DNA of 11,508 nt, taken from positions 1-11,508 of IMG/VR virus record IMGVR_UViG_2681813225_000024. One strand, given 5' to 3'. The position numbers and the translations under genes were made by a program. Source of the stretch: a virus. Lineage: Duplodnaviria > Heunggongvirae > Uroviricota > Caudoviricetes. The notes below the pieces were generated by a model. It was given only the letters and a program-made list of their open reading frames with translations. It was not told the origin of the DNA and searched no databases. Positions 1 through 11,508 of this stretch are shown here, piece by piece; position 1 is the first letter of the stretch; each line of letters opens with the position of its first letter.

Positions 1-603
1 TTTCACACCTTCCAGCATGGTTTCGGGTTTTACCCCCTCATTCAAACGGGCTTTCCAGGCTTTGAAGGCTGCAGATTTTGAATTGCCACCAGCACGTTTG
101 GGGTATGCCAGCCATGCCTGCTCAAACTCCGGAGAGTATTCCGGTCGGTTTGAACGAACTCGCACAGACTCATCAGCAGATGCACCAACAGCTATTGGTT
201 CATTGACTGGTTCAAAAGAGTGACTGGTTCTGGGTGAATCTCCTGCACTACCCCCTGGTGCAACTCCTGCACTACCTGGTGAATTTGCTGCACCAGATAG
301 TGAATTATTTGCACTACCCCCTAGTGAATCTCCTGCACCATCCAGATGAAGGAGATAGATATTACTTGAGTTACCTTTTTCACCTTTCCGGGTGACTTTT
401 TTTACCAGCCCGGAATCACAAAGGGCCGCAATATGATTCATCACAGAACGTTTGCTAATCTCGCACTGATCAGCAATATGCTGGTAGCTGGGCCAGCACT
501 CACCCTGATCGCTGGCATTATCAGCCAGCTTGATCAGAACCAGTTTTCGCAATGGATTACCCACTCGAATTTTCATCGCTTTAACCATCAGCTCCATACT
601 CAT
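1..603 (-). CDS. Phage replication initiation protein, N-terminal helix-turn-helix domain plus Gly/Ser/Ala-rich linker; 3' end lies beyond window start (partial)
   Basis: Manual minus-strand translation from ATG at 603..601 is open to position 1 (201 codons, no stop); it is absent from the ORF track because no stop lies in the window. Begins MSMELMVKAMKIRVGNPLRKLVLIKLADNASDQGECWPSYQHIADQCEISKRSVMNHIAALCDSGLVKK, which resembles the HTH domain found at the N-terminus of phage replication initiators. ATG overlaps the upstream gene stop as ATGA (coupling). It is the last gene of the PR-like operon. Confidence 0.7.
   Translation of the reverse strand, partial: MSMELMVKAMKIRVGNPLRKLVLIKLADNASDQGECWPSYQHIADQCEISKRSVMNHIAALCDSGLVKKVTRKGEKGNSSNIYLLHLDGAGDSLGGSANNSLSGAANSPGSAGVAPGGSAGDSPRTSHSFEPVNEPIAVGASADESVRVRSNRPEYSPEFEQAWLAYPKRAGGNSKSAAFKAWKARLNEGVKPETMLEGVK
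225..350. repeat. Imperfect tandem repeats (~21-24 bp units) inside the replication gene, encoding a low-complexity linker (GDSLGGSANNSLSGAANSPGSAGVAPGGSAGDSP)
   Basis: Plus strand shows reiterated units such as ggtgaatctcctgcactaccccct / ggtgcaactcctgcactacct / ggtgaatttgctgcacca / agtgaatctcctgcacca; the reading frame is maintained through them. Confidence 0.6.
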
Positions 604-836
604 GCTGCACCTCCGAGATGCTTCATGTTTTTTCCGGAGCGAAAGGTTATAAGCGGCATACTGACGCGGTAATTACGGCCCAGCGGTTCACAAATCACCT
701 TCTGACATTCACGGTCAACCAGGCTAACACGTAGAACATGCCCTGCAGGCGTGGTGTACCACTGCCCAACTGTAGGAATTGATGTTTTTTTACGCTGAAA
801 TAAACGGTAAATATTGAGGATCAACGGATTAAGCAT
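600..836 (-). CDS. Hypothetical small phage protein (78 aa)
   Basis: ORF track; ATG at 836..834; its stop overlaps the replication gene ATG (ATGA) and its start overlaps the upstream gene stop (ATGCTTAA), giving translational coupling within the operon. No recognisable motif. Confidence 0.45.
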   Translation of the reverse strand: MLNPLILNIYRLFQRKKTSIPTVGQWYTTPAGHVLRVSLVDRECQKVICEPLGRNYRVSMPLITFRSGKNMKHLGGAA

Positions 837-1473
837 GACGATGCCCTCCGCTGATATTCAGGAGACGGTGAATATGAAAATTAGCCTTATCCGCCAGACG
901 AATACGTTCAGCCTGCAAGTTAAGAAGGGTTTCTACCAGAACCTGATGCGCCTGCGGATCCGAAAGAGTTACCTTGCGCAGAGCACGTAGTGCAGTTGTT
1001 ACATAACTGAGTTTATGTAAGTCTTCATCATTCAGACGAGTGAGGGCTGGGACAGTAGCCATGATGGCAGCCTCCTTGATCGGTGAAATACTTCCACCAC
1101 CGGAAACGCCAATTTCGCTGGTGGTGAACTGAACGGGGTTGGCGTAACCGGTGATCAAGGAAACCGGCGCATCTTTCGATGCCCCCGCCCAGCCCACCAT
1201 AACTTTGATGTGAGCAAATGCGGACGATAAAAAAGACGCTGGCGCGTCATATATCGCCTTGATCAATTCCAGGACGCCAATCCCGGCACCCGCTTTATAA
1301 GGTGCCTGAACAGTGTAACGTCCCGGAATGGCAGAATCAATGTGCTGGTGGTCCTTCACACTCAACAAAATCACGCCTGAATTTCCACAAAGGACTAAAG
1401 CACTCATGCGGGTAGTCTTTGCGAAGATAGATAACGCGCTGTGTTTCTGGTTCCCAACGAATAACATGGACAT
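829..1473 (-). CDS. Hypothetical phage protein; start uncertain (ORF opens at TTG 1518; ATG at 1473 has RBS-like AAGAGGG just upstream)
   Basis: ORF track 829..1518, 229 aa. Sequence looks protein-like (ALVLCGNSGVILLSV, GVSGGGSISPIKEAAIMATVPALTRL). Its 5' part overlaps the upstream 109-aa ORF out of frame, so the start or the gene integrity is unresolved. Confidence 0.4.
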   Translation of the reverse strand: MSMLFVGNQKHSALSIFAKTTRMSALVLCGNSGVILLSVKDHQHIDSAIPGRYTVQAPYKAGAGIGVLELIKAIYDAPASFLSSAFAHIKVMVGWAGASKDAPVSLITGYANPVQFTTSEIGVSGGGSISPIKEAAIMATVPALTRLNDEDLHKLSYVTTALRALRKVTLSDPQAHQVLVETLLNLQAERIRLADKANFHIHRLLNISGGHRHA

Positions 1474-1666
1474 AAAGCCCTCTTCCGTCACGAAACCAGC
1501 GGTTAAGTTCCCGCACAACTCGCCCCCCCACAGTCAGGTAAAGTTCTCTGTGGTTACTTACAGCCAGGTGATTTGGTAATCTGCATTCATGCCGTAACAA
1601 CAGGTGTTCAGCGACACTGACCACCAGCTGTTGCGACAAACGGTTATTTGCCGTTAAACTGTTCAT
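1337..1666 (-). CDS. Hypothetical phage protein (109 aa)
   Basis: ORF track; ATG at 1666..1664 overlaps the stop of the upstream CII-like gene (ATGA); GGAG-containing RBS about 10 nt upstream. No recognised family. Confidence 0.45.
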   Translation of the reverse strand: MNSLTANNRLSQQLVVSVAEHLLLRHECRLPNHLAVSNHRELYLTVGGRVVRELNRWFRDGRGLYVHVIRWEPETQRVIYLRKDYPHECFSPLWKFRRDFVECEGPPAH

Positions 1667-2226
1667 GCGTTAGTTTCTCCACAGACACAAAACGCCACGA
1701 CGCCCGGAGCTGCACACTCGCGGGCGTCACTCTTTTCTGGAGCGCAAAAGATTTTGTAGACCAGTGCTGCATGCTCTTGGAGCTTCGAAATTGACAGATA
1801 CAACTCATCATTAATTGCTGTCTGCTCGTGTGGCTCCACGACCCCATCTTCGATTGCCGAACGAATCTGCTTTGAGTAATTCCCGATCTGTTCGATGACT
1901 TCCAGCAGGCGCTGGTTTATATCGGCGTTCTCTACTTCCTCAATTTCAGGAAGCGATACGAACACCCCACCAGCAGACTGTGCGACAGCATCCGCAATGT
2001 AGTGAGTGCCAGCCGCGCGCTGTAAAACCATTGCCCATCCCAGCGGGAAAATCTGATCGCCATCGGCACGAAGGCGGTTAAATAATGCGTTCTCTGTTAC
2101 ATCCAGCCAGTCAGCTGCTTCAGCGTAACCACCCGGCAACGCTGCGATAGTTTTTCTGACAGCTTTCACGTACCACTCAGGCTGTTTTTCTACTTTCCAG
2201 TGATACTTACCCACGGTTAGCCTCAT
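1663..2226 (-). CDS. Putative CII-like / YdaT-like early regulatory protein (about 183-187 aa)
   Basis: ORF track; sits immediately downstream of the Cro-like gene, the position CII holds in lambdoid phages and YdaT holds after YdaS. Alternative GTG start at 2214 has GAGG 6 nt upstream. The family call rests on synteny and weak recollection, not on a verified motif. Confidence 0.5.
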   Translation of the reverse strand: MRLTVGKYHWKVEKQPEWYVKAVRKTIAALPGGYAEAADWLDVTENALFNRLRADGDQIFPLGWAMVLQRAAGTHYIADAVAQSAGGVFVSLPEIEEVENADINQRLLEVIEQIGNYSKQIRSAIEDGVVEPHEQTAINDELYLSISKLQEHAALVYKIFCAPEKSDARECAAPGVVAFCVCGETNA

Positions 2227-2257
2227 CGTTCTGTGGTTAAAAATTGAAGGTGTTCTG

Positions 2258-2458
2258 TTAATCTTTCGGATAGATATCCGGTCTTAAGTCAGATTTCGTA
2301 ATTGCACCTGACGTGCATTGCTCAAGTTTTTTCGCCAGCACAAAACTGGCTTTTTTATAACCATTGAAAACCAGCCGTAAGTAGCCAGGTGTTGAGCCAA
2401 CTTTTCCGGCCAACTCGCCCTGCTGTTCTTTGGTTAAAGAGTCCCAATACGCTTTCAT
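2258..2458 (-). CDS. Cro-like HTH regulator (YdaS/Cro family), 66 aa from ATG 2458
   Basis: ORF track frame 2258..2563; internal ATG at 2458 gives MKAYWDSLTKEQQGELAGKVGSTPGYLRLVFNGYKKASFVLAKKLEQCTSGAITKSDLRPDIYPKD, a typical small Cro/YdaS-type HTH. AAGG RBS about 10 nt upstream. Divergent from the CI-like gene across an operator-bearing intergenic region. Confidence 0.65.
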   Translation of the reverse strand: MKAYWDSLTKEQQGELAGKVGSTPGYLRLVFNGYKKASFVLAKKLEQCTSGAITKSDLRPDIYPKD

Positions 2459-2464
2459 ACAATA

Positions 2465-2531
2465 TGTACCTTCAGTATACATATTACATGATTGAAATGA
2501 ACCTTCAAGATACTTGTACCTTATCGGTACA
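2465..2531. promoter_or_regulatory. OR-like operator cluster: three 17-bp sites fitting TGTAC-N7-GTACA, with divergent promoters for cro-like and cI-like genes
   Basis: Sites read directly: 2465-2481 TGTACCTTCAGTATACA; 2498-2514 TGAACCTTCAAGATACT; 2515-2531 TGTACCTTATCGGTACA (perfect palindromic half-sites). They lie between the cro-like start (2458, minus) and the cI-like start (2549, plus). Confidence 0.5.
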
Positions 2532-2548
2532 AAGGTTTTAATTTCGTT

Positions 2549-3223
2549 ATGAAAACAATCCATGACATCCGGCGGTCTAACGCCAGAAACCTGAGAGATG
2601 GTGTTGGCGGAAATTCATCCTTTGCCACCATGATTGATCGCGAGCCAACCCAGACCAGTAGGTTTATGGGGGATGGCGCTACTAAAAATATCGGTGACAG
2701 CATGGCACGGCACATCGAAAAATGTTTCGACCTGCCTGTCGGATGGCTTGATCAAGAACACCAGACAACGAACATCACAAAAAAACCTGATGTTTCAATC
2801 ACTAACAAACAAATAACGTTAGTCCCTGTCATATCATGGGTACAGGCCGGAGCATGGAAAGAAGTTGGCTATTCTGAGGTTGATTTGAGCACAGCAGAAA
2901 CGTATCCCTGCCCTGTCCCCTGTGGCGAAATGACTTATATCTTGCGGGTGATTGGTGATTCAATGATTGATGAGTACCGCCCTGGAGACATGATTTTTGT
3001 TGATCCCGAAGTCCCTGCCTGCCACGGTGACGACGTTATTGCATTGATGCACGATACAGGCGAAACCACCTTCAAGCGATTGATAGAAGATGGAACACAG
3101 CGTTATCTCAAAGCATTAAACCCAAACTGGCCTGAGCCTTACATTAAGATTAACGGTAATTGCTCTATAATTGGTACAGTGATTTTCTCGGGAAAACCAA
3201 GAAGATACACAATAAAGGTCTAA
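2549..3223 (+). CDS. CI/LexA-like prophage repressor (N-terminal HTH, C-terminal S24 peptidase autocleavage domain), 224 aa
   Basis: ORF track. C-terminal region has the S24 hallmarks: GDSM (Ser nucleophile) in RVIGDSMIDEYRPGDMIFVD and a downstream Lys in TTFKRL. The N-terminus is HTH-like. Weak RBS, as is common for cI genes. Confidence 0.85.
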   Translation: MKTIHDIRRSNARNLRDGVGGNSSFATMIDREPTQTSRFMGDGATKNIGDSMARHIEKCFDLPVGWLDQEHQTTNITKKPDVSITNKQITLVPVISWVQAGAWKEVGYSEVDLSTAETYPCPVPCGEMTYILRVIGDSMIDEYRPGDMIFVDPEVPACHGDDVIALMHDTGETTFKRLIEDGTQRYLKALNPNWPEPYIKINGNCSIIGTVIFSGKPRRYTIKV

Positions 3224-3235
3224 TCAATATTTATG

Positions 3236-3260
3236 AACCTGCTTCGGCAGGTTTTTTTAT
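3236..3260 (+). terminator. Rho-independent terminator downstream of the repressor gene
   Basis: Stem ACCTGC (3237-3242) / GCAGGT (3247-3252), loop TTCG, followed by a T7 run (3252-3258). Confidence 0.7.
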
Positions 3261-3262
3261 AC

Positions 3263-3291
3263 TTGACAATGTACTCATGAGATACATAACG
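3263..3291 (+). promoter_or_regulatory. PL-like early-left promoter with overlapping OL-like operator
   Basis: Perfect -35 TTGACA at 3263-3268; weak -10 candidate CATAAC about 16 bp downstream. The 17-bp site TGTACTCATGAGATACA (3270-3286) has the same TGTAC-N7-ATACA architecture as the OR sites. Confidence 0.4.
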
Positions 3292-3708
3292 TATCCAAAA
3301 GAAACATGGGGCAGGCAAGATTCAAACAAAATTTGGTTGTAACACGGCGTATGGCACATGCGTCGTTAGCGGTCTGGGGACGTTAAAGGGGACAATCCAC
3401 TCCTTGCTCGGGCAAACAAACCAGGTAGCCGGAATGTGCAAGTCAATGATGATGCTGATAAGACGCCTAACCAGCGTGGCGATCCGGTTTGACGCCTGGG
3501 AAGAGACCAGGGTGCAACGATGAGGGCATTTATGGAGCCGCGACAAAGTGTGGTGCCGTAACTGGCTAAGTGCTCTCAGCGTTGTGGTCATCCGCGAAAT
3601 GGCGCGGCGGTAAGTATGGCTGGGTTACTCTTTCCCCGTTGAGGACACCGGATTGTCAGGTTGACCATACGCCTGAGTGACAACCCCACCACAACAGCCA
3701 CTGCTTTG

Positions 3709-3755
3709 GCGGTACCAGTTTGTACACTTGCTTCCGGCTGGTACCGCTCTTTTTA
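3709..3755 (+). terminator. Terminator-like hairpin in the early-left leader
   Basis: 10-bp stem GCGGTACCAG (3709-3718) / CTGGTACCGC (3738-3747) followed by TCTTTTT. Confidence 0.4.
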
Positions 3756-3756
3756 C

Positions 3757-3845
3757 AAAACAGAGAAGAGCATCACCGGACGACGGGCTCATAACCCAAT
3801 CCATCCGGGCGGCTGCCACCGCAGGTGTTCTTCTCTGTTTTGTGG
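3757..3845 (+). terminator. Second long hairpin (13-bp perfect inverted repeat at base) immediately upstream of the first early gene RBS
   Basis: AAAACAGAGAAGA (3757-3769) is exactly complementary to TCTTCTCTGTTTT (3829-3841), enclosing a 59-nt GC-rich segment; ends in a U-run. Confidence 0.35.
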
Positions 3846-3891
3846 AGAAACCAACCGACCTTGCAGGGTCGATATGATGAGGAGCAGCAAA

Positions 3892-4254
3892 ATGGCTAGC
3901 GAACGCAGTACTGATGTGCAGGCATTTATCGGGGAGTTGGACGGCGGCGTATTTGAAACCAAAATCGGCGCTGTTCTCAGTGAAGTCGCTTCCGGTGTGA
4001 TGAACACGAAAACCAAAGGTAAGGTCTCACTCAACCTGGAAATCGAACCATTTGATGAGAACCGTGTGAAAATCAAACACAAACTCTCATATGTTCGCCC
4101 GACTAACCGCGGGAAAATTTCCGAAGAAGACACCACCGAAACGCCGATGTATGTCAATCGCGGTGGTCGCCTGACTATTCTGCAGGAAGACCAGGGACAA
4201 TTACTGACTCTTGCCGGTGAACCTGACGGAAAACTCCGCGCAGCAGGTCATTAA
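3892..4254 (+). CDS. yfdP: YfdP-like conserved prophage early protein (120 aa)
   Basis: ATG at 3892 preceded by GAGGAG with 7-nt spacing; lies in the ORF track frame 3661..4254. Length and position directly upstream of a YfdQ-like gene match the CPS-53 yfdPQRS order as I recall it. Symbol assigned by synteny, not verified. Confidence 0.5.
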   Translation: MASERSTDVQAFIGELDGGVFETKIGAVLSEVASGVMNTKTKGKVSLNLEIEPFDENRVKIKHKLSYVRPTNRGKISEEDTTETPMYVNRGGRLTILQEDQGQLLTLAGEPDGKLRAAGH

Positions 4255-4318
4255 TACGTTATTAATAAACTGATTATTTATCGCATCACTGAATATCTTT
4301 ATATAGTGAGGACTTATT

Positions 4319-5143
4319 ATGTCTCAGAACTTAGACGCAACCGCAATTAATCAAATCCATGCCCTTATTTCTGCTCAGGGTGTTAATGAAATTATCAGTA
4401 AGATTGGTGCCGATGCTGTGGCATTGCCTGAGAATTTCCGCATTCATGATCTGGAAAAATTTAATTTAAATCGTTTCCGTTTCCGTGGTGCGCTTTCCAC
4501 TGCCAGCATCGATGACTTTACCCGTTATTCTAAAGATCTTGCAGATGAAGGTACCCGCTGCTTTATCGATGCCGATAATATGCGTGCCGTCAGTGTGCTT
4601 AACCTGGGTACTATTGATGAGCCAGGTCACGCAGATAACACTGCCACTCTCAAACTGAAAAAGACAGCACCGTTCTCTGCTCTGTTATCTGTTAATGGCG
4701 AGCGTAACTCCCAGAAGTCACTGGCAGAATGGATTGAAGACTGGGCCGACTACCTTGTGGGCTTTGATGCTAATGGTGACGCTATTCAGGCAACAAAAGC
4801 GGCTGCGGCAGTCCGTAAAATCACGATTGAAGCAAACCAGACCGCTGATTTTGAAGATAATGACTTCAGCGGCAAACGCTCCCTGATGGAGTCTGTCGAA
4901 GCGAAGACCAAAGACATTATGCCAGTGGCATTTGAATTTAAATGCGTTCCGTTTGAAGGCCTTAAAGAACGTCCGTTTAAATTACGCCTCAGCATTATCA
5001 CTGGCGATCGTCCTGTACTGGTTCTGCGCATTATTCAGCTGGAAGCGGTGCAGGAAGAAATGGCTAACGAATTTCGTGATCTGCTTGTTGAGAAATTTAA
5101 AGACAGCAAAGTAGAAACCTTTATTGGTACTTTCACCGCCTGA
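4319..5143 (+). CDS. yfdQ: YfdQ-like protein (DUF2303 family), 274 aa
   Basis: ORF track; AGGA RBS about 9 nt upstream; size and sequence character consistent with E. coli CPS-53 YfdQ; followed by YfdR- and YfdS-like genes in the same order. Confidence 0.65.
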
Positions 5144-5155
5144 TTTCATTACTGC

Positions 5156-5177
5156 AAATGCCCCTGCGGGGGCATTT
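5156..5177 (+). terminator. Terminator-like hairpin after the yfdQ-like gene
   Basis: 9-bp stem AAATGCCCC (5156-5164) / GGGGCATTT (5169-5177), loop TGCG; the U-tract is short, so this may be an attenuator or RNA stability element. Confidence 0.35.
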
Positions 5178-5270
5178 ATGGAAACATAATTTACTCAATA
5201 ATCGCCAGATGGTGATGGCTTCCTTTTACCAGAATTCAGCGCGGTGCAGCGCATATACGTGGAGAACAAA

Positions 5271-5807
5271 ATGTCATTTATTAAAACTTTTTCCGGGAAG
5301 CATTTTTATTATGACAGGATAAATAAAGACGACATCGTGATTAACGATATCGCGGTTTCCCTTTCAAATATCTGTCGCTTTGCAGGACATCTTTCACACT
5401 TCTACAGCGTCGCCCAACATGCGGTGCTTTGCAGCCAGCTGGTACCGCAGGAATTTGCTTTTGAAGCGTTAATGCATGATGCAACAGAAGCATATTGCCA
5501 GGACATCCCCGCACCACTGAAACGCCTTCTTCCTGACTATAAACGGATGGAAGAAAAAATAGACGCCGTAATCCGTGAGAAATACGGGTTACCTCCTGTT
5601 ATGAGCACGCCAGTGAAATATGCCGATCTCATTATGCTGGCAACCGAACGCCGCGATCTCGGGCTTGATGATGGCTCTTTCTGGCCTGTACTGGAAGGTA
5701 TCCCGGCGACAGAGATGTTCAAAGTTATTCCACTGTCACCAGGCCATGCCTACGGGATGTTTATGGAACGTTTTAACGAGTTATCGGAGTTACGCAAATG
5801 CGCATGA
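5271..5807 (+). CDS. yfdR: HD-domain phosphohydrolase, YfdR-like 5'-deoxynucleotidase (178 aa)
   Basis: ATG at 5271 with GGAGA RBS 5 nt upstream (track ORF opens at GTG 5244). HD motif context in AQHAVLCSQL...ALMHDATEAYCQDIP. Size matches YfdR. Confidence 0.65.
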   Translation: MSFIKTFSGKHFYYDRINKDDIVINDIAVSLSNICRFAGHLSHFYSVAQHAVLCSQLVPQEFAFEALMHDATEAYCQDIPAPLKRLLPDYKRMEEKIDAVIREKYGLPPVMSTPVKYADLIMLATERRDLGLDDGSFWPVLEGIPATEMFKVIPLSPGHAYGMFMERFNELSELRKCA

Positions 5808-6160
5808 ATGTTTTCGAAATGGAAGGGTTTCTTCGCGGGAAATGTGTACCGCGAGATCTGAAAGTGAACGAAACAAATGCTGAGTACCTGGTACGTAAAT
5901 TCGATGCGCTTGAAGCTAAATGTACGGCACTGGAAAACAAAATAATACCAGTGTCAGCTGAACTGCCACCAGCAAATGAAAGTGTTCTGTTATTTGATGC
6001 TAACGGAGAAGGCTGGCTAATTGGCTGGCGTTCTCTCTGGTACACCTGGGGACAAAAAGAAACCGGAGAATGGCAGTGGACATTTCAGATCGGGGACCTT
6101 GAAAACGTCAATATCACTCACTGGGCAGTAATGCCGAAAGCACCGGAGAATAAGAAATGA
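5798..6160 (+). CDS. yfdS: YfdS-like protein (120 aa)
   Basis: ORF track; start overlaps the yfdR-like stop; GGAG 8 nt upstream; size and synteny match YfdS. Confidence 0.55.
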   Translation: MRMNVFEMEGFLRGKCVPRDLKVNETNAEYLVRKFDALEAKCTALENKIIPVSAELPPANESVLLFDANGEGWLIGWRSLWYTWGQKETGEWQWTFQIGDLENVNITHWAVMPKAPENKK

Positions 6161-6360
6161 GCGTGATAAAAACTCATACAGGAATTGTTATCACCCGAGA
6201 CGGTCCGCAGGTAAAAAAACTGCACCAGACAAAGCGGATGTGGGTCGTCGGAAAAAACGAGTTTTACCGCAAAGAAACCGGACGCCGCCACTTTGCAGAA
6301 AATACGCGCCGCCGACTGCTGATCGACAGCATCAAGCCTATCGAGGTGAAGCATGTTTAA
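6157..6360 (+). CDS. Hypothetical small basic protein (67 aa)
   Basis: ORF track; ATGA overlap with the preceding stop; GGAG 8 nt upstream. Confidence 0.45.
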   Translation: MSVIKTHTGIVITRDGPQVKKLHQTKRMWVVGKNEFYRKETGRRHFAENTRRRLLIDSIKPIEVKHV

Positions 6361-6592
6361 ACAGAACGAAAAATCTATCGCTCAAATTGCTGAGTATATC
6401 CCGCGTGCGTGCCGGGGTATGCAGTTGCAGGAAGCCAAAGCGCGCCTGGAGAAAAAAATTGCGCTCTATATCGATGACGGCTGTGATGCTGCCGTTCTTA
6501 ACGCAGCGTTCGCGCCAGCTCTTAACAGTCATACGCGGGAGTCTTTTTTTTCGCGCATCGCAGCGCAGATCCGTAAAGGAGGCAACCAGTGA
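6353..6592 (+). CDS. Hypothetical protein (79 aa)
   Basis: ORF track; start overlaps the previous stop; GAGG RBS upstream; protein-like composition. Confidence 0.45.
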   Translation: MFKQNEKSIAQIAEYIPRACRGMQLQEAKARLEKKIALYIDDGCDAAVLNAAFAPALNSHTRESFFSRIAAQIRKGGNQ

Positions 6593-7143
6593 GCGAGATT
6601 AACTATCAGGCTCTGCGACTGGCGGCAGAAAATGCAACACCAGGCGAATGGTGTGCTGATGACTACCATGGAGTAATTGCCGATGCCGGACTGAACGCCA
6701 ATTACTACATAGCATCATGCTCAGGACCAGATAATCGCGCCAATAAACGATTCATAGCCGCCGCCAATCCTGCCACCGTCTTGGCGCTGCTGGATGAGCT
6801 GGAAGCAGCAGAGAAGCGAAACGCTGAATTACAAAGCGAGAATGCATACATCCGCAACCGGTACAAAGAACTGGACCTATTAATCGGGAAAAATATTCTG
6901 GTCATGCAGGCTGCCATTATCGAATGGCAGGCAACTGGCGACGCTAAGAGCGGACTGGCATGGATTTATAACACACTGTTTGGCCCTGGCGAATTACCGG
7001 ACGAATCTGAGAAAGATGCTCAGGCCTACTTTAATCGCAAATATGCACCGATTGACGAAAAGCTTATGGCGCTTCACAAGTGGTTTTGGGAACAAAGTGA
7101 AGCCGAGCGCGCCGCCGCCAACATTGGTGTGAAGGGGAAGTGA
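6589..7143 (+). CDS. Ead/Ea22-like family protein (184 aa)
   Basis: ORF track; GTG start overlapping the upstream stop (GTGA) with AAAGGAGG 7 nt upstream. N-terminal LRLAAENATPGEW and a coiled-coil-like middle region are typical of Ea22-like early-left proteins. Confidence 0.6.
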   Translation: MSEINYQALRLAAENATPGEWCADDYHGVIADAGLNANYYIASCSGPDNRANKRFIAAANPATVLALLDELEAAEKRNAELQSENAYIRNRYKELDLLIGKNILVMQAAIIEWQATGDAKSGLAWIYNTLFGPGELPDESEKDAQAYFNRKYAPIDEKLMALHKWFWEQSEAERAAANIGVKGK

Positions 7144-7144
7144 G

Positions 7145-7336
7145 ATGAACGGACAAATCTCAATTGTTCGACCGGGAGCATGTGACGATTGCGAGATACG
7201 AATGATTATTCGTCTGGCGATGGGGAAAACAATAACTGCTCTCATTACTCCAGAAAATCTCGCATTAGCATTAACAGGAAAGTCAGACCTGCCAGTAGAG
7301 CTAAAGCTGCGAAATGTTGAGATTAAGGTGAAATAG
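7145..7336 (+). CDS. Hypothetical small protein (63 aa)
   Basis: ORF track; starts 1 nt after the upstream stop; purine-rich RBS. Confidence 0.4.
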   Translation: MNGQISIVRPGACDDCEIRMIIRLAMGKTITALITPENLALALTGKSDLPVELKLRNVEIKVK

Positions 7337-7338
7337 CT

Positions 7339-8346
7339 ATGACCACTATTACCAAAGAGCGACTGCTGACAATCAAGCAGTGGCGCGAAACATACGGACC
7401 TGGTAGCAACGTTGTACTGCCAGCAGAAGAAGCGGAAGAACTGGCACGGATTGCACTGGCATCATTGGAAGCAGATCCAGTTAAACGAGTTAACTCAGAT
7501 CAGATGCACCGAGTCTGCTTAGAAGCTAATCGCTATTTAGATAAATATGACGCGATGGCGAAAGAGGTAAATAAGTTGCTTGGACGCATCGCCCCGCCAG
7601 CGCCAGTATTTAACGGCGAATACGGTGACGCATATCAGGGCGCTCGTGAAGACCTGTCCATCTGGAAACGGCGAGCGCTTGAAGCTGATGAGCACGTTCG
7701 GCGACTGGAGCAAATCAATGACCACATGGTGAAAGAGGCGCAGGGAGAATCACGCATGGGCGAGCCTGTAATACGTGAGCCAGCACCGGTAGTGCCTGAA
7801 GAAGCAACTCCGGAAAACGTAGAAATGCTCTCTGGCTATGTTTCAACGTACAAATTAACCGATAGCGAGCGCGATATTGCTGCCGAAATATGGAACGCCT
7901 GCCGCGCCGCCATGCTTCAGGGTAGCCAACCTGTAAGCCAAACTTACAAGTTTCCAGTTAATACACCTTGCCAGGATGCGCCAGCCCATATCTGGCTGCA
8001 AACAGCTGGAGTATGGCCAGAAGATGGCGAGTTAAGCGAATTAACGTGGTGCAGCCACAATCAGCACCATGATGACACGCTATATGTTCGAGCTGACTTG
8101 GTAAATGGCAACTCTCCGGGAACTCCGGATAGTTGGATAAGCTGTAGTGATCAAATGCCTGAAAAGGGCCAGAACGTGCTTATTTCGGTGAATTTCGATA
8201 GCTCTCTGGTTGAACCGCTAATATGCTCCGCACGCTATACCGGAAGAACCTTTCGGCGCGGAGATGCAACGATTAAGCCGGGTAATGGTATTGAGCAAGC
8301 AACTCACTGGATGCCGCTACCGGAACCGCCGCAGGAGGTGAAGTGA
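7339..8346 (+). CDS. DUF551 domain-containing phage protein (335 aa)
   Basis: ORF track; C-terminal HWMPLPEPP is characteristic of DUF551 proteins in enterobacterial prophages; AAGGTGA RBS. Confidence 0.6.
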   Translation: MTTITKERLLTIKQWRETYGPGSNVVLPAEEAEELARIALASLEADPVKRVNSDQMHRVCLEANRYLDKYDAMAKEVNKLLGRIAPPAPVFNGEYGDAYQGAREDLSIWKRRALEADEHVRRLEQINDHMVKEAQGESRMGEPVIREPAPVVPEEATPENVEMLSGYVSTYKLTDSERDIAAEIWNACRAAMLQGSQPVSQTYKFPVNTPCQDAPAHIWLQTAGVWPEDGELSELTWCSHNQHHDDTLYVRADLVNGNSPGTPDSWISCSDQMPEKGQNVLISVNFDSSLVEPLICSARYTGRTFRRGDATIKPGNGIEQATHWMPLPEPPQEVK

Positions 8347-8918
8347 TGAACAACTTAATGATCGACCTTGAGACGATGGGGAAAAATAAGGATGCACCGA
8401 TCGTTTCCATTGGCGCGGTGTTCTTCACTCCAGAAACCGGAGACATCGGACAAGAATTCTATACGGTTGTTAGCCTGGAAAGTGCTATGGGGCAAGGAGC
8501 TACACCTGACGGCGATACCATCCTGTGGTGGTTGAAACAAAGCCCTGAAGCACGAGCTGCAATCTGTATTGATGATACTTTGTCGATCAGCGATGCTCTC
8601 TCAGAACTAAATCATTTCATTAACCGGCACGCAGCCAATACGAAATATTTAAAAGTCTGGGGTAACGGGGCCACCTTCGACAACGTAATTTTACGTGGAG
8701 CTTATGAGCGAGCAGGACAAATCTGCCCGTGGGCATACTGGAATGACCACGATGTACGCACGATCGTTACGCTTGGGCGTTCCATCGGATTCGACCCCAA
8801 AATGGACATGCCTTTCGATGGCGAACGGCACAACGCCCTGGCCGATGCCCGTCATCAGGCAAAATATGTTTCCGCTATCTGGCAGAAATTAATTCCTGCC
8901 ACCAGCACAGAATTATGA
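8346..8918 (+). CDS. DnaQ-like (DEDD) 3'-5' exonuclease, phage-type (190 aa)
   Basis: ORF track 8343..8918; ATG at 8346 overlaps the upstream stop, with GGAGGTGA RBS. N-terminal MIDLETMG matches exo motif I (D-x-E); later acidic and His residues fit the DEDDh pattern. Confidence 0.65.
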   Translation: MNNLMIDLETMGKNKDAPIVSIGAVFFTPETGDIGQEFYTVVSLESAMGQGATPDGDTILWWLKQSPEARAAICIDDTLSISDALSELNHFINRHAANTKYLKVWGNGATFDNVILRGAYERAGQICPWAYWNDHDVRTIVTLGRSIGFDPKMDMPFDGERHNALADARHQAKYVSAIWQKLIPATSTEL

Positions 8919-8954
8919 TTTTCCCGGGTGCAGCCGGTTTTGATGGAGAAAATT

Positions 8955-9236
8955 ATGAACACCTTGTTTTTACTGATGGCTGAATTCAATACCCCTAACA
9001 TTGAACTCTCAGCAGTTAGCCAAAAGTACTTTGGCATGAGTCCAGCCACGGCAGAAGCAAAAGCAAACGCTTGTAAGTTGCCCGTTCCAACATATCGCAT
9101 CGGCACATCACAAAAAGCAAAACGTTGCATCAATATTCAGGATCTTGCGGAATACATAGACAAAAGACGAGAAGAAGGACGTATCGAGTGGGAACAGGTC
9201 AGAACAAGCAAACAGAAGGGCAAAGAACATCACTAA
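8955..9236 (+). CDS. PrtN/AlpA-like small DNA-binding regulator, possibly excisionase-like (93 aa from ATG 8955)
   Basis: ORF track frame 8928..9236; ATG at 8955 with GGAG 7 nt upstream. MNTLFLLMAEF...PVPTYRIGTSQKAKRCINIQDLAEYIDKRREEG resembles pyocin-activator PrtN family proteins. Last gene before the bidirectional terminator. Confidence 0.55.
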   Translation: MNTLFLLMAEFNTPNIELSAVSQKYFGMSPATAEAKANACKLPVPTYRIGTSQKAKRCINIQDLAEYIDKRREEGRIEWEQVRTSKQKGKEHH

Positions 9237-9240
9237 AGAA

Positions 9241-9264
9241 AAAACCCGCCTAAAGGCGGGTTTT
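9241..9264. terminator. Bidirectional rho-independent terminator
   Basis: AAAACCCGCC-TAAA-GGCGGGTTTT; GC stem flanked by A-run and T-run, so it works on both strands. Ends the plus-strand early operon and the convergent minus-strand small ORF. Confidence 0.8.
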
Positions 9265-9283
9265 CAAAAAGCACCAGCTATGA

Positions 9284-9457
9284 TCATGCTGCTTTGCGAC
9301 GACGAAGCTTACCCTGCTGCTCTTTACCAGAGACAGTAGCGTGAGTGAACGCATTAGGAGCAGCCTTCATCAGAACTTCAACAGCAGCACCCATACCTGC
9401 GAATGCTTTCATTGTGTCGAACTTAACCTGTGGCTTGGTTGCTTTTTGATCTTTCAT
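9284..9457 (-). CDS. Small hypothetical protein, 57 aa (MKDQKATKPQVKFDTMKAFAGMGAAVEVLMKAAPNAFTHATVSGKEQQGKLRRRKAA)
   Basis: Not in the ORF track (under 60 aa); found by manual translation. ATG at 9457..9455 with GGGAG 6 nt upstream; stop TGA at 9286..9284 just before the bidirectional terminator. Lys-rich N-terminus, hydrophobic core, basic C-terminal tail. Confidence 0.5.
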   Translation of the reverse strand: MKDQKATKPQVKFDTMKAFAGMGAAVEVLMKAAPNAFTHATVSGKEQQGKLRRRKAA

Positions 9458-9653
9458 AGAAAACTCCCGAGACAGTAAAGGCGTCTCTAACCCTTTCTTT
9501 AAAGCTAGCTTGTTTCGCTAACTTATGCCAATCGATCATGTCGATTGGTGACATCGTTTCTTAGTAGTTTAAGCACAAAACGACTGCCATAGATGTACCT
9601 TTAAGGTAATCTGGACGGGTATCCTACAATTTGTAGACCCTTCTCGTCTATAC

Positions 9654-10190
9654 CTACTGAGCAAATTTAAGAAAGATATCCTGCAGCTCATCAATGACTG
9701 CCGACATCACATAACCGCACTGTTCCATGTGGAAACCAAAAGACTCGTAATACTGCACCAGTTCTGGTACTGGCTCTACAATGTGGACAACTTTACATTC
9801 AACAGCTTTACAAAATATAAAAGCACTCATAAGAGTGAGTAAAACCATGCGCCCTTTCAATGGGTGAGATTCATCTTCTCTAGAAAACCTTTCGATCATA
9901 TGGATACGAAAGATGTTTTCTTCAACCCCATAAACACAAATTGCTGCTCCTGATGGTATTCCCTGAACCCGACCTTGCTGAACAAGTTTTATACAGAACT
10001 CATACTTTTCTCTGGAGTTGCCATAGGTACTTAACGCATAGTCCCATTCAAGCTCACCATAGCCACCACACAGAATCTTGTAATCATCATCACTGAGCGG
10101 ACCAACAGCAAGAGGTAAGCCGACATGATCAATAATCAACTGGATATTGTTACGTACTGATTGACCTATCTCGTCCAGGGTAAGCATCAT
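9654..10190 (-). CDS. Hypothetical protein (178 aa) in AT-rich cargo; weak resemblance to a GNAT-like acyltransferase fold
   Basis: ORF track; tandem ATGs at 10190 and 10187 with GAGG upstream. Loose fit to a GNAT C-terminal pattern (IHMIERF...LKGRMVLLTLMSAFIFCKA...YYESFGF) but no clear Q/R-x-x-G-x-G/A acetyl-CoA motif. Visibly more AT-rich than the phage early genes. Confidence 0.5.
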   Translation of the reverse strand: MMLTLDEIGQSVRNNIQLIIDHVGLPLAVGPLSDDDYKILCGGYGELEWDYALSTYGNSREKYEFCIKLVQQGRVQGIPSGAAICVYGVEENIFRIHMIERFSREDESHPLKGRMVLLTLMSAFIFCKAVECKVVHIVEPVPELVQYYESFGFHMEQCGYVMSAVIDELQDIFLKFAQ

Positions 10191-10219
10191 GGCCTCTCAA
10201 GCGGAACACTAAAAGTCGC

Positions 10220-10225
10220 ATTATA
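10220..10225 (-). promoter_or_regulatory. Candidate -10 hexamer (TATAAT on minus strand) for the 178-aa gene
   Basis: Plus ATTATA at 10220-10225 is TATAAT on the minus strand, about 29 nt upstream of the ATG; no convincing -35. Confidence 0.3.
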
Positions 10226-10739
10226 TCTCATTCTTAAGCCGCGTATGGATTACACCTTGAAATGAAAACGCCGGGTTCCCAATAGGCTCCCACAGAGTGT
10301 ATAACTACTTGTTTTTCAAAAACGGTACATCCTATCGAGCATTGGTGCAACGCTAAACCGACCACTCCAGTGAACGTCAGTTTTTTCAGGCATTGCGCTG
10401 GTTTGGTTGATTTTTTGCATTTCAGAATTACCGTGCATTTTCAAATGTAGAGATTATTTTATCAATATATCATGGGGTTATGTTATTCAGCTTCACTGTT
10501 CAGGAGGCTCAATAGCGGGGTACTATACCATAACAACAGGAAGCGCCTGTCTCATTGCAAAAGAAAATTGAGATCCTCTCAAGGCATGAAGCTCTCACGA
10601 AGTGATGGAAATAATCTTATTAGCCGTTAACTTTGTTAAGGCCAATGATAAACAATCCAGGTTCGACGATAAATAAAAAATCACACATTAAACTCTGGTG
10701 ATATATCTCCCTGCTAATAGCATTGATAGAGAAAAAAGA

Positions 10740-10757
10740 ACCCAATAAATATTGGGT
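10740..10757 (-). terminator. Rho-independent terminator of the 235-aa gene
   Basis: Hairpin ACCCAAT-AAAT-ATTGGGT; on the minus strand it is followed by TCTTTTTTCTC, and it lies about 45 nt downstream of the stop at 10801-10803. Confidence 0.6.
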
Positions 10758-10800
10758 CCTTTTATATAATGCCTTCCATACTATCGAAGAACTTCACATA

Positions 10801-11508
10801 TTATTTCTCCGATTTAACCCCGAACAAATCATAAATTAATTTAGAAGTGTCTGTAAGTATTTTAATCTCTTCCTTTGAGGTTGGGTCAAACGACTTCGCG
10901 AAGCTAATTAATTGTGGTGCAGCATCTCGCATTTTGCTTAAAATATCAGGATCGAGCGTTCCTTCATTCACCAGATGTGACATCTTATCCAGATAGCCAT
11001 CAAAATTCATTTCTCCCCCATCAGCCAGACGCTTCATCTCTCCCAAGTACTTCTTCATATCACGTTGAGATAATTTTTCAAACTGAGCTTTCAGGTAGCT
11101 CTCATTATTTTCATTAATATACACTGTTTCTGATAAATCTGCGTAGGCACTAGAATATGAAAGTGAAATTAACAGCGAAGCAAATAATTTTAAGCTGTTG
11201 TCATCATGTTCCTGGCAGGCATTAACAAACGTTAAAAAACCAGAACCTATTGCTTGAAAATGTATATTCGCTAAAGGTTCATTATCCTTAGATTCCTCAT
11301 AAAATAGCTGAACCGTGGAGGGAAGGCCATTCTTAGTTTCTACATCAAAAGTACATTGTTCAATGGGAGTCGCATCTTTATTATCCCCAGGATTACATAT
11401 ACTATTAATCGCGAAATGAAAAATAGCCCGGTCAACAACTGATGCAATAAAGTCACGATCGTTTAAATCCTCATCAGTGCAATCGTCAATATACTTATTG
11501 ACCCACAT
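10801..11508 (-). CDS. Hypothetical acidic protein (at least 235 aa), AT-rich, unknown function; 5' end may extend beyond the window
   Basis: ORF track; the first in-window ATG sits exactly at the window edge (11508..11506), so the true start is uncertain. Long uninterrupted frame with coherent protein-like composition despite low GC; own terminator downstream. Confidence 0.5.
   Translation of the reverse strand: MWVNKYIDDCTDEDLNDRDFIASVVDRAIFHFAINSICNPGDNKDATPIEQCTFDVETKNGLPSTVQLFYEESKDNEPLANIHFQAIGSGFLTFVNACQEHDDNSLKLFASLLISLSYSSAYADLSETVYINENNESYLKAQFEKLSQRDMKKYLGEMKRLADGGEMNFDGYLDKMSHLVNEGTLDPDILSKMRDAAPQLISFAKSFDPTSKEEIKILTDTSKLIYDLFGVKSEK

Follow-up and report, generated by a model that had tools for sequence, protein, structure and literature searches.

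Open reading frames at the locus

The DNA analysed here (the window) is the 11,508-nt IMG/VR record IMGVR_UViG_2681813225_000024, positions 1 to 11,508, which represents the early-right region of an e14-like lambdoid prophage of Escherichia coli, with the operon on the minus strand. Directly after the regulator gene ymfL, two open reading frames (ORFs) overlap out of frame: one of 109 amino acids (aa), which contains a DUF4222 gene, and a mechanically called ORF of 229 aa in the +1 frame relative to it, here termed frame B (Table 1). An earlier note on this DNA had reported an overlap of about 137-182 nt, and the open-reading-frame listing confirms it, with 182 nt when counted from TTG 1518 and 137 nt from ATG 1473. 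The note was also right that the neighbouring operon junctions are short: the TGA stop of ymfL (1665-1663) shares bases with ATG 1666-1664 to form an ATGA at 1666-1663, and the junction with the next gene is ATGCTTAA at 836-829.

The annotation of the two ORFs in public records is inconsistent. RefSeq/PGAP on an identical record starts a DUF4222 protein of 59 aa at GTG 1516 and places an "ash family protein" (WP_214667267.1) at 1407..829. Among near-identical records the PGAP start of the latter is placed at 1407, at 1374 or at ATG 1666, and one variant is a 386-aa "Rha family" protein starting from the ATG at the ymfL stop. A search of the small ORFs against NCBIfam returned zero matches.

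A lineage-specific base in the G tract

The minus strand upstream of DUF4222 reads ACTGTGGGGGGGCGAGTTGTG, with seven G (G7) at 1523-1529, whereas three close relatives (L002/L004/L005) carry six (G6). In the G6 relatives the ORF from ATG 1666 enters frame B and not the DUF4222 frame, and it stays open to 829 as a long ORF of 278 aa, or of 386 aa with a Rha C-terminus. The extra G of the window places the TGA at 1536-1534 between the coupled ATG 1666 and frame B, so that the long ORF loses its start, and it puts the 47-codon N-terminus of that ORF in frame with DUF4222, which produces the 109-aa ORF. Of the readings offered by the earlier note, a frameshifted single gene is thus right in that the window has one G more than about 99% of its homologues, but no single gene has been split; a 47-codon N-terminal segment has been moved onto DUF4222. 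The homologue comparison that the note had proposed, asking whether the two frames are fused elsewhere, finds a fusion in so far as the ORF from ATG 1666 runs into the downstream frame in the G6 relatives.

The G6 form is by far the common one. Its 44-mer is present in 978 E. coli records, while the exact G7 67-mer is found in only 5, all of them complete genomes from different laboratories and countries. At the tract, 40 IMG/VR loci are G6 and 0 are G7, a result also expressed as 40 of 41 viral contigs with G6. The G7 records listed share a 1601-nt haplotype at 100.0% identity, against 99.8% for the closest G6 records, and the exact 109-aa protein (P0001) occurs on 44 contigs (NCBI and Logan assemblies). 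Because this haplotype is distinct and shared, and because its product recurs on these contigs, we regard the G7 insertion as a real, rare and inherited allele. In more diverged types the tract itself is not kept, being G5 in the L046 type and GGAGGG at the homologous position in the e14 type.

Two frames under different kinds of selection

DUF4222 is supported as a gene in its own right. Pfam PF13973 matches residues 53-102 of the 109-aa ORF (48.7 bits against a cut-off of 27), and phrog_1343, whose profile is exactly 59 residues long, is matched over 1-59 of 59 (E 2.5e-36). The ATG, GTG or TTG starts of diverged homologues align at 1516, each behind a Shine-Dalgarno (SD) sequence, and the large DUF4222 protein clusters are of 59 aa. 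Substitutions counted by DUF4222 codon position show an excess at the third (for example 6/7/28, between lineages), and for distinct lineages the amino-acid identity is 62-84% in the DUF4222 frame vs 25-45% in frame B (84% vs 45% in one example). The third-position bias and the higher identity therefore identify DUF4222 as the frame under protein-level selection. DUF4222 stands alone at about 59 aa with its own start, and its in-frame upstream extension in the window is due to G7. Individual loci carry lesions here: in L121 a 1-nt deletion in the same overlap destroys the GTG start, and L086 has a Trp-to-stop change within DUF4222.

The first 47 codons of the 109-aa ORF align with the first ~55 aa of YmfM-like ORFs found in 11 or more genera, and therefore the 109-aa ORF is a chimera of a YmfM-like N-domain and DUF4222. 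Among the YmfM-like ORFs, changes in this domain number 24/22/43 by codon position, which is a coding signature, and the GCATGA coupling to ymfL is common to the window and its relatives. Frame B belongs to a YmfM-like ORF of 108-112 aa (86 aa in one case) in 22 of 23 genome loci; these ORFs start with an ATGA on the ymfL stop, and the site at which they end, shortly ahead of the DUF4222 stop, is conserved.

We asked how frame B behaves where it crosses DUF4222, using 26 unique sequences from Escherichia, Citrobacter, Enterobacter, Kluyvera, Raoultella, Kosakonia, Phytobacter and others. Frame B has no stop over DUF4222 in any of the 26, and when DUF4222 is recoded synonymously the probability of an open frame B is 0.014-0.09 per sequence. 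The codons of DUF4222 show how this is achieved. A stop-risk codon is here a Leu, Val or Ile codon followed by A or G, at which an ending in A or G would make a frame-B stop. Of 112 stop-risk codons, 111 have C or T as their last base, and the sole exception makes TGG; at no-risk positions 85 of 133 Leu, Val and Ile codons end in C or T and 48 in A or G. For Leu the difference is sharper, with C or T endings at 39/39 risk but 8/39 no-risk positions (A or G endings, 0/39 and 31/39). The openness reflects selection and not a frozen sequence, because the codons turn over (CTT/CTC, GTT/GTC). Judged from these comparisons, frame B is kept open by selection but is not conserved as an amino-acid sequence: both frames are open beyond chance in diverged homologues, and the products are not both conserved as amino acids in the overlap.

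The genuine overlapping pair that the earlier note had also listed is thus borne out for the family, with DUF4222 conserved as a protein and the other frame selected to remain open. The note had said that homologues with two distinct genes, each frame being conserved independently, would speak against its suspicion; in the homologues the second frame keeps its openness and not its amino-acid sequence.

A fusion of the N-domain with DUF4222 was considered as a natural architecture and rejected, the other full-length proteins in the databases being chimeras from different indels, mostly singletons. Sporadic alleles at the same overlap are represented by P0002-P0004, P0020, P0043 (n = 14 members) and P0046, several of which are indel chimeras that switch frames at differing points.

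An RNA cassette and a nested gene within the second frame

Most of the 229-aa ORF lies downstream of DUF4222, and the ORF combines frame B over DUF4222 with a promoter (putative), an isrK-like RNA, a C4 RNA and a 77-aa gene. The earlier note, to which its translation looked protein-like, missed that this ORF is mostly the template of the two RNAs, as it missed the G7 run. The isrK-like RNA scores above its Rfam cut-off and ends in an intrinsic terminator, found by terminator scan, with a stem at 1248..1235 and T6 at 1234..1229. Homology between cassettes with different upstream genes starts exactly at ATTGATTC, and the Rfam isrK model starts at 1305. The putative internal promoter lies just upstream, its -35 overlapping the DUF4222 stop.

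The C4 RNA carries the antisense elements a' (1145..1139) and b' (loop UUUCCUUGAUCA), with one pair of targets upstream, within isrK, and a second downstream, where b2 covers the SD AAGGAGG of ATG 1062. An exact 7-nt complement of a' occurs downstream in 92 of 95 loci, among which there are 11 variants of a', and the complement of b' in 82 of 95, with 29 variants, so the targets covary with the antisense loops. The structure is likewise maintained: in 25 variants, compensatory (double) changes are seen in 13 of 28 pairs, and almost no pairs are broken. As in its family, the C4 RNA may be processed to a stable form and confer immunity. An AUG at its 5' end (1200-1198), which corresponds to the start of Gifsy-1 orf45, is conserved in 89 of the 95 sequences scanned. 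On each of two IMG/VR contigs (L021 and L098) there is a pair of C4 cassettes whose a'/b' specificities differ, separated by ~0.7-1.3 kb.

The 77-aa gene is nested in frame at the 3' end of the long ORF. Its product matches the C-terminal parts of phrog_4908 and phrog_3960, has no Pfam family and shows no similarity to P1 Icd. In Rha-type relatives the Pfam Rha domain begins directly after the same ATG as 1062. The late internal start suggested in the earlier note applies to this nested gene only.

Pfam Phage_ASH (PF10554) matches residues 68-161 of the 229-aa ORF at 68.3 bits against a cut-off of 26, and the isrK-like and C4 RNAs lie inside the match. Across 37 unique cassettes, changes by codon position of this frame (the Ash frame) are spread evenly (10/9/10, 15/13/11, 8/9/9, 11/12/12 and 14/10/10), and the C4 stretch (11/12/12) has no periodicity. 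We found no protein-level constraint on the Phage_ASH region, whose conservation is explained by RNA structure, and what has been called an "Ash family protein" is for the most part RNA-gene sequence read as codons. In 71 of 94 unique cassettes the Ash frame nevertheless runs without a stop over 400 nt or more, vs 6 of 94 for each of the other frames, and in several unrelated contexts its first ATG overlaps, as ATGA, the stop of an upstream ORF of some size. In five loci (L010, L024, L043, L044 and L104) the Ash frame is out of phase with the downstream ATG (…EAATWLLP…) and is still open for hundreds of bases.

Table 1. Coordinates of the overlapping frames, RNA elements and neighbouring genes in the window
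Feature	Positions	Strand	Basis or remark
ymfK (LexA-like repressor)	2549-3223	+	
ymfT (cro-like)		-	Between ymfK and ymfL in the order given
ymfL, CII/CP76-like regulator	1663..2226	-	Pfam Phage_CP76; PGAP ymfL in identical record
109-aa ORF	1666..1337	-	Open-reading-frame listing
YmfM-like N-terminal domain, 47 codons	1526..1666	-	Start of the long Eta-like ORF in relatives
G7 homopolymer, +1 insertion site	1523..1529	-	Also SD-like element 6 nt upstream of GTG 1516
Frame-B segment over DUF4222	1340..1533	-	Middle of Eta-like ORF; separated from its start by TGA 1536-1534
229-aa mechanical ORF	1518..829	-	Open-reading-frame listing
DUF4222 gene, 59 aa, GTG start	1337..1516	-	TGA stop 1339-1337; Pfam PF13973, phrog_1343, PGAP coordinates
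Putative internal promoter, TTGATT-17 nt-TACACT	1306..1341	-	Candidate analogue of P4 PLE / Gifsy-1 PisrK
isrK-like / P4 seqA-like small RNA	1229..1305	-	Rfam RF01394, 64.2 bits, gathering cut-off (GA) 50
Upstream C4 target sites, within isrK	a1 1280..1274, b1 1265..1257	-	
C4 / P4-CI-type antisense RNA	1117..1204	-	Rfam RF01695, 82.3 bits, GA 45, model positions 1-87
Downstream C4 targets	1073..1112	-	a2 1112..1106, b2 1081..1073
Nested in-frame 77-aa gene	829..1062	-	Positional equivalent of P4 kil; SD/start AGGAGGCTGCCATCATGGCTAC
Next gene, 78 aa	600..836	-	phrog_1153, E 2.7e-41; probable distant DUF4222-like paralogue

The gene that follows the cassette encodes 78 aa. DUF4222 matches phrog_1153 weakly (E 0.008), a W..G..V...Q.VI pattern is common to DUF4222 and the 78-aa ORF, and the latter is probably a distant DUF4222 paralogue in the same operon. 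Elsewhere in the window, at 9232-9304 on the minus strand, weak Rfam matches to rnk_pseudo, RNAI, P9 and sroH are stacked on one hairpin followed by a T-run, which is probably merely an intrinsic terminator.

Comparison with known systems

The closest parallel to the layout is the eta (orf199)/kil region of phage P4, in which a long ORF coupled by ATGA holds an internal promoter, seqA, the CI RNA and an in-frame nested short gene. In P4 the long ORF starts with an ATGA on the orf88 stop at 8767, the isrK model matches at 8692..8615 (seqA) and the C4 model at 8507..8420 (CI RNA), and kil, a nested gene of 65 aa, lies behind an SD and start identical to those of the 77-aa gene. Pfam Phage_ASH lies over RNA in both systems, in P4 over the part of the old "cI 137 aa" ORF that covers the CI RNA. 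The window shares with this type an ORF that contains seqA-like and CI-like RNA genes and a nested 3' gene with an RNA-targeted ribosome-binding site (RBS); a coupled long ORF upstream of the promoter is present in P4 and in the G6 relatives but, owing to G7, not in the window. Other differences are that the element follows ymfL within the early-right operon of a prophage of e14/lambdoid type, that the long ORF of the window type adds a YmfM-like domain and a whole DUF4222 gene in another frame, and that the 77-aa product is unrelated to Kil past the first residues. On P4 itself (L127), PF10554 matches the obsolete 'cI protein' ORF (8168-8584), and the epsilon antirepressor (7888-8175) is PF25738; a survey of P4-like satellites used PF10554 as an epsilon marker (PMC8628076).

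In P4, transcripts from the constitutive internal promoter terminate and yield CI (Forti et al. 1999, as summarised in PMC10111431). According to the same summary, full-length Eta is made only from the upstream promoter, by translation that is coupled to the gene before it and that keeps transcription from terminating. In Gifsy-1, orf45 lies over a C4-like RNA and is translated; its nucleotides are conserved, its amino acids are variable, and it is coupled to the next gene (PMC4825925). These findings for P4 Eta and Gifsy-1 orf45 explain how a frame can be kept open without protein conservation. The isrK-orf45-anrP region of Gifsy-1 (Hershko-Shalev et al. 2016, PMC4825925) resembles the window in having IsrK with a leaky terminator, followed by an ORF from an AUG at the 5' end of the C4-like RNA (STnc1160). 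It differs in that orf45 stops at an AUGA with anrP, whereas the frame in the window continues in phase into the next gene, as the same paper reports for S. dysenteriae; that paper describes neither an upstream long ORF nor DUF4222.

The immI region of P1/P7 (c4-icd-ant) shares the arrangement in which two C4 loops pair with a1/b1 upstream and with a2/b2 over the RBS of the next gene, and DNA similarity to a P1-like plasmid is 70.8% over window positions 1030-1310. P1-type cassettes do not keep a long frame open, and the 77-aa product is unlike Icd. In the P1-like plasmid NZ_CP027443.1 (L006), PGAP places an 'ash family protein' pseudogene at 2059-2289, on the c4 RNA gene stretch upstream of icd and ant.

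For the upstream half of the arrangement the parallel is ymfM of the E. coli K-12 element e14, which is reported to encode the cell-division inhibitor SfiC. It too follows ymfL with ATGA coupling, has a homologous N-domain, and has DUF4222 nested out of frame in its 3' half; it differs in that the frame ends 20 nt short of the DUF4222 stop and that a replication gene follows with no RNA cassette. BLASTP of the 109-aa ORF against K-12 YmfM gave no match, since the two proteins read their common DNA in different frames. In K-12 (NC_000913.3, L003) the curated 112-aa ymfM at 4323-4681 overlaps a DUF4222 ORF (TTG start, SD AAGGAGA) out of frame. The published ymfM clone of K-12 carries most of both ymfM and DUF4222, and the preprint reports no protein-level check.

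Alternative explanations

We consider it likely that the window carries a lineage-specific frameshift allele of a conserved overlapping arrangement. The firm parts of this reading are the indel and its rarity, selection on both frames, the RNA genes with their covarying targets, and ATGA coupling in many contexts. Several points weigh against it. The counts given above come from phylogenetically related sequences and overstate their independence. The e14-type relatives keep frame B open without a downstream RNA cassette, and therefore anti-termination cannot be the sole reason for its openness; YmfM may itself be a genuine protein whose tail is overprinted. About four A/B-type cassettes carry a stop within or just upstream of isrK. 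A promoter scan gave no site above threshold (the candidate scores 8/12), so the internal promoter is one that we infer, as is the translation of frame B.

The opposite view, that DUF4222, the two small RNAs and the 77-aa gene are real while the long second frame is an annotation artefact, never translated and open through chance, ancestry and G+C-rich stems, draws on the lack of amino-acid conservation and codon periodicity in that frame, on the distant C4 types (P1-like and others) that do not keep it open, and on the pseudogene called on the P1 c4 RNA gene. It does not explain the avoidance of stops at risk codons, the open frame in all 26 coding sequences or the recurrence of ATGA coupling of the first ATG in unrelated upstream contexts, and it sits badly with a functional eta frame in P4 and a translated equivalent, orf45, in Gifsy-1. 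We think it unlikely, and the whole second frame as a spurious ORF was dropped after the stop-avoidance tests and the coupling survey. A real 'Ash family' protein from a late internal start, at ATG 1407 or 1473 and overlapping the end of DUF4222 by 71-137 nt, would account for the Phage_ASH score and for WP_214667267.1, and GGAAGAGGG precedes ATG 1473. Against it, the Pfam match coincides with isrK and C4 in a region without codon periodicity, the same domain sits on the CI RNA in P4, the PGAP starts disagree among near-identical records, and both ATGs are missing from diverged relatives; we hold this to be very unlikely.

The remaining two explanations concern the G run. Programmed recoding, by ribosomal or transcriptional slippage as a regulated or phase-variable switch, gains some appeal from the G_GGG_GGC of the G6 relatives, which is formally an X_XXY_YYZ heptamer, as in -1 frameshifting of the dnaX type, at a potential branch point between two products, and slippage by -1 at this heptamer would yield precisely the 109-aa product; homopolymers are also mutable, and sporadic fusion alleles occur in other lineages. 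Unlike a dnaX-type site, the heptamer is not conserved: the search for slippery heptamers that the earlier note had suggested finds G6, G5 or GGAGGG at the homologous position, and e14-type loci lack a heptamer. DUF4222, the second product, starts independently, with its own SD, at the same aligned position everywhere and has a family profile of 59 aa, the ~978 G6 against 5 G7 records are unlike the length distribution of a phase-variable tract, and the indels behind the other chimeras lie at other sites. The 150 nt upstream of GTG 1516 (1666..1517) are not unusually structured (z = -0.61, for a fold that covered the upstream side only), and an RNA element in the ymfL-DUF4222 spacer was dropped on the same value. 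The programmed frameshift raised in the earlier note thus finds no support, and we leave recoding only a slight chance. A sequencing or assembly error would fit the frequency of homopolymer length errors in long-read assemblies and the great rarity of G7. The same 67-mer in five complete genomes of separate origin, the G7 haplotype that sets these records apart from the closest G6 ones, and the 109-aa protein on 44 contigs make such an error hardly credible.

Proposed mechanism

We propose the following for the frameshift allele and its parent arrangement. In the normal G6 form, ribosomes coupled from ymfL would translate the YmfM-like domain of about 47 aa and go on, out of frame, through DUF4222 and the RNA cassette. 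By analogy with P4, this translation of frame B on early transcripts would mask the isrK terminator and Rho entry sites, such that the 77-aa gene and the replication genes are reached; translation-dependent read-through would in this way prevent termination here. Transcripts from the putative internal promoter, being untranslated, would terminate and yield the immunity RNAs. DUF4222 would be made separately from GTG 1516, with the G run as its Shine-Dalgarno element. In the G7 form, ribosomes from ATG 1666 would be diverted into DUF4222 and stop at 1337, 89 nt before the terminator stem, and the remainder of the long frame (1533..829) would have no coupled start. The predicted outcome is an N-extended DUF4222 protein and polarity on the downstream genes.

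Significance

The RNA cassette and the principle of P4 eta are already known, and Rfam C4 and isrK matches inside "Bro network" genes have been noted for satellites. Our literature search found no account of the G-tract allele, of a lambdoid prophage with this layout in its early operon, or of DUF4222 nested in a YmfM/Eta-like frame where stop avoidance can be measured. For the scanning of genomes, the lesson is that long out-of-frame overlaps beside homopolymers should be compared with relatives and with RNA family models.

The "ash family" and 278-386-aa "Rha family" annotations in about a thousand E. coli prophages are mainly a frame over two regulatory RNA genes, a frame that is still selected to be open, as in P4 eta. 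The G6 and G7 alleles, or frame-B stops that are silent in DUF4222, offer a genetic handle on whether escape from RNA immunity depends on translation. The nesting of DUF4222 in K-12 ymfM bears on the source of the SOS-inducible filamentation attributed to SfiC. We put forward tentatively, as possible but doubtful, that DUF4222 and the YmfM/Eta-like frame form a dual-coding locus maintained across the Enterobacteriaceae, in which the second frame is selected only for being translated and not for its protein sequence. If this were true, single-base changes in the G tract would be heritable switches that decide read-through of the RNA cassette and hence expression of the replication genes, and the identity of the SfiC/YmfM division inhibitor of K-12, as between the two overlapping products, would come into question.

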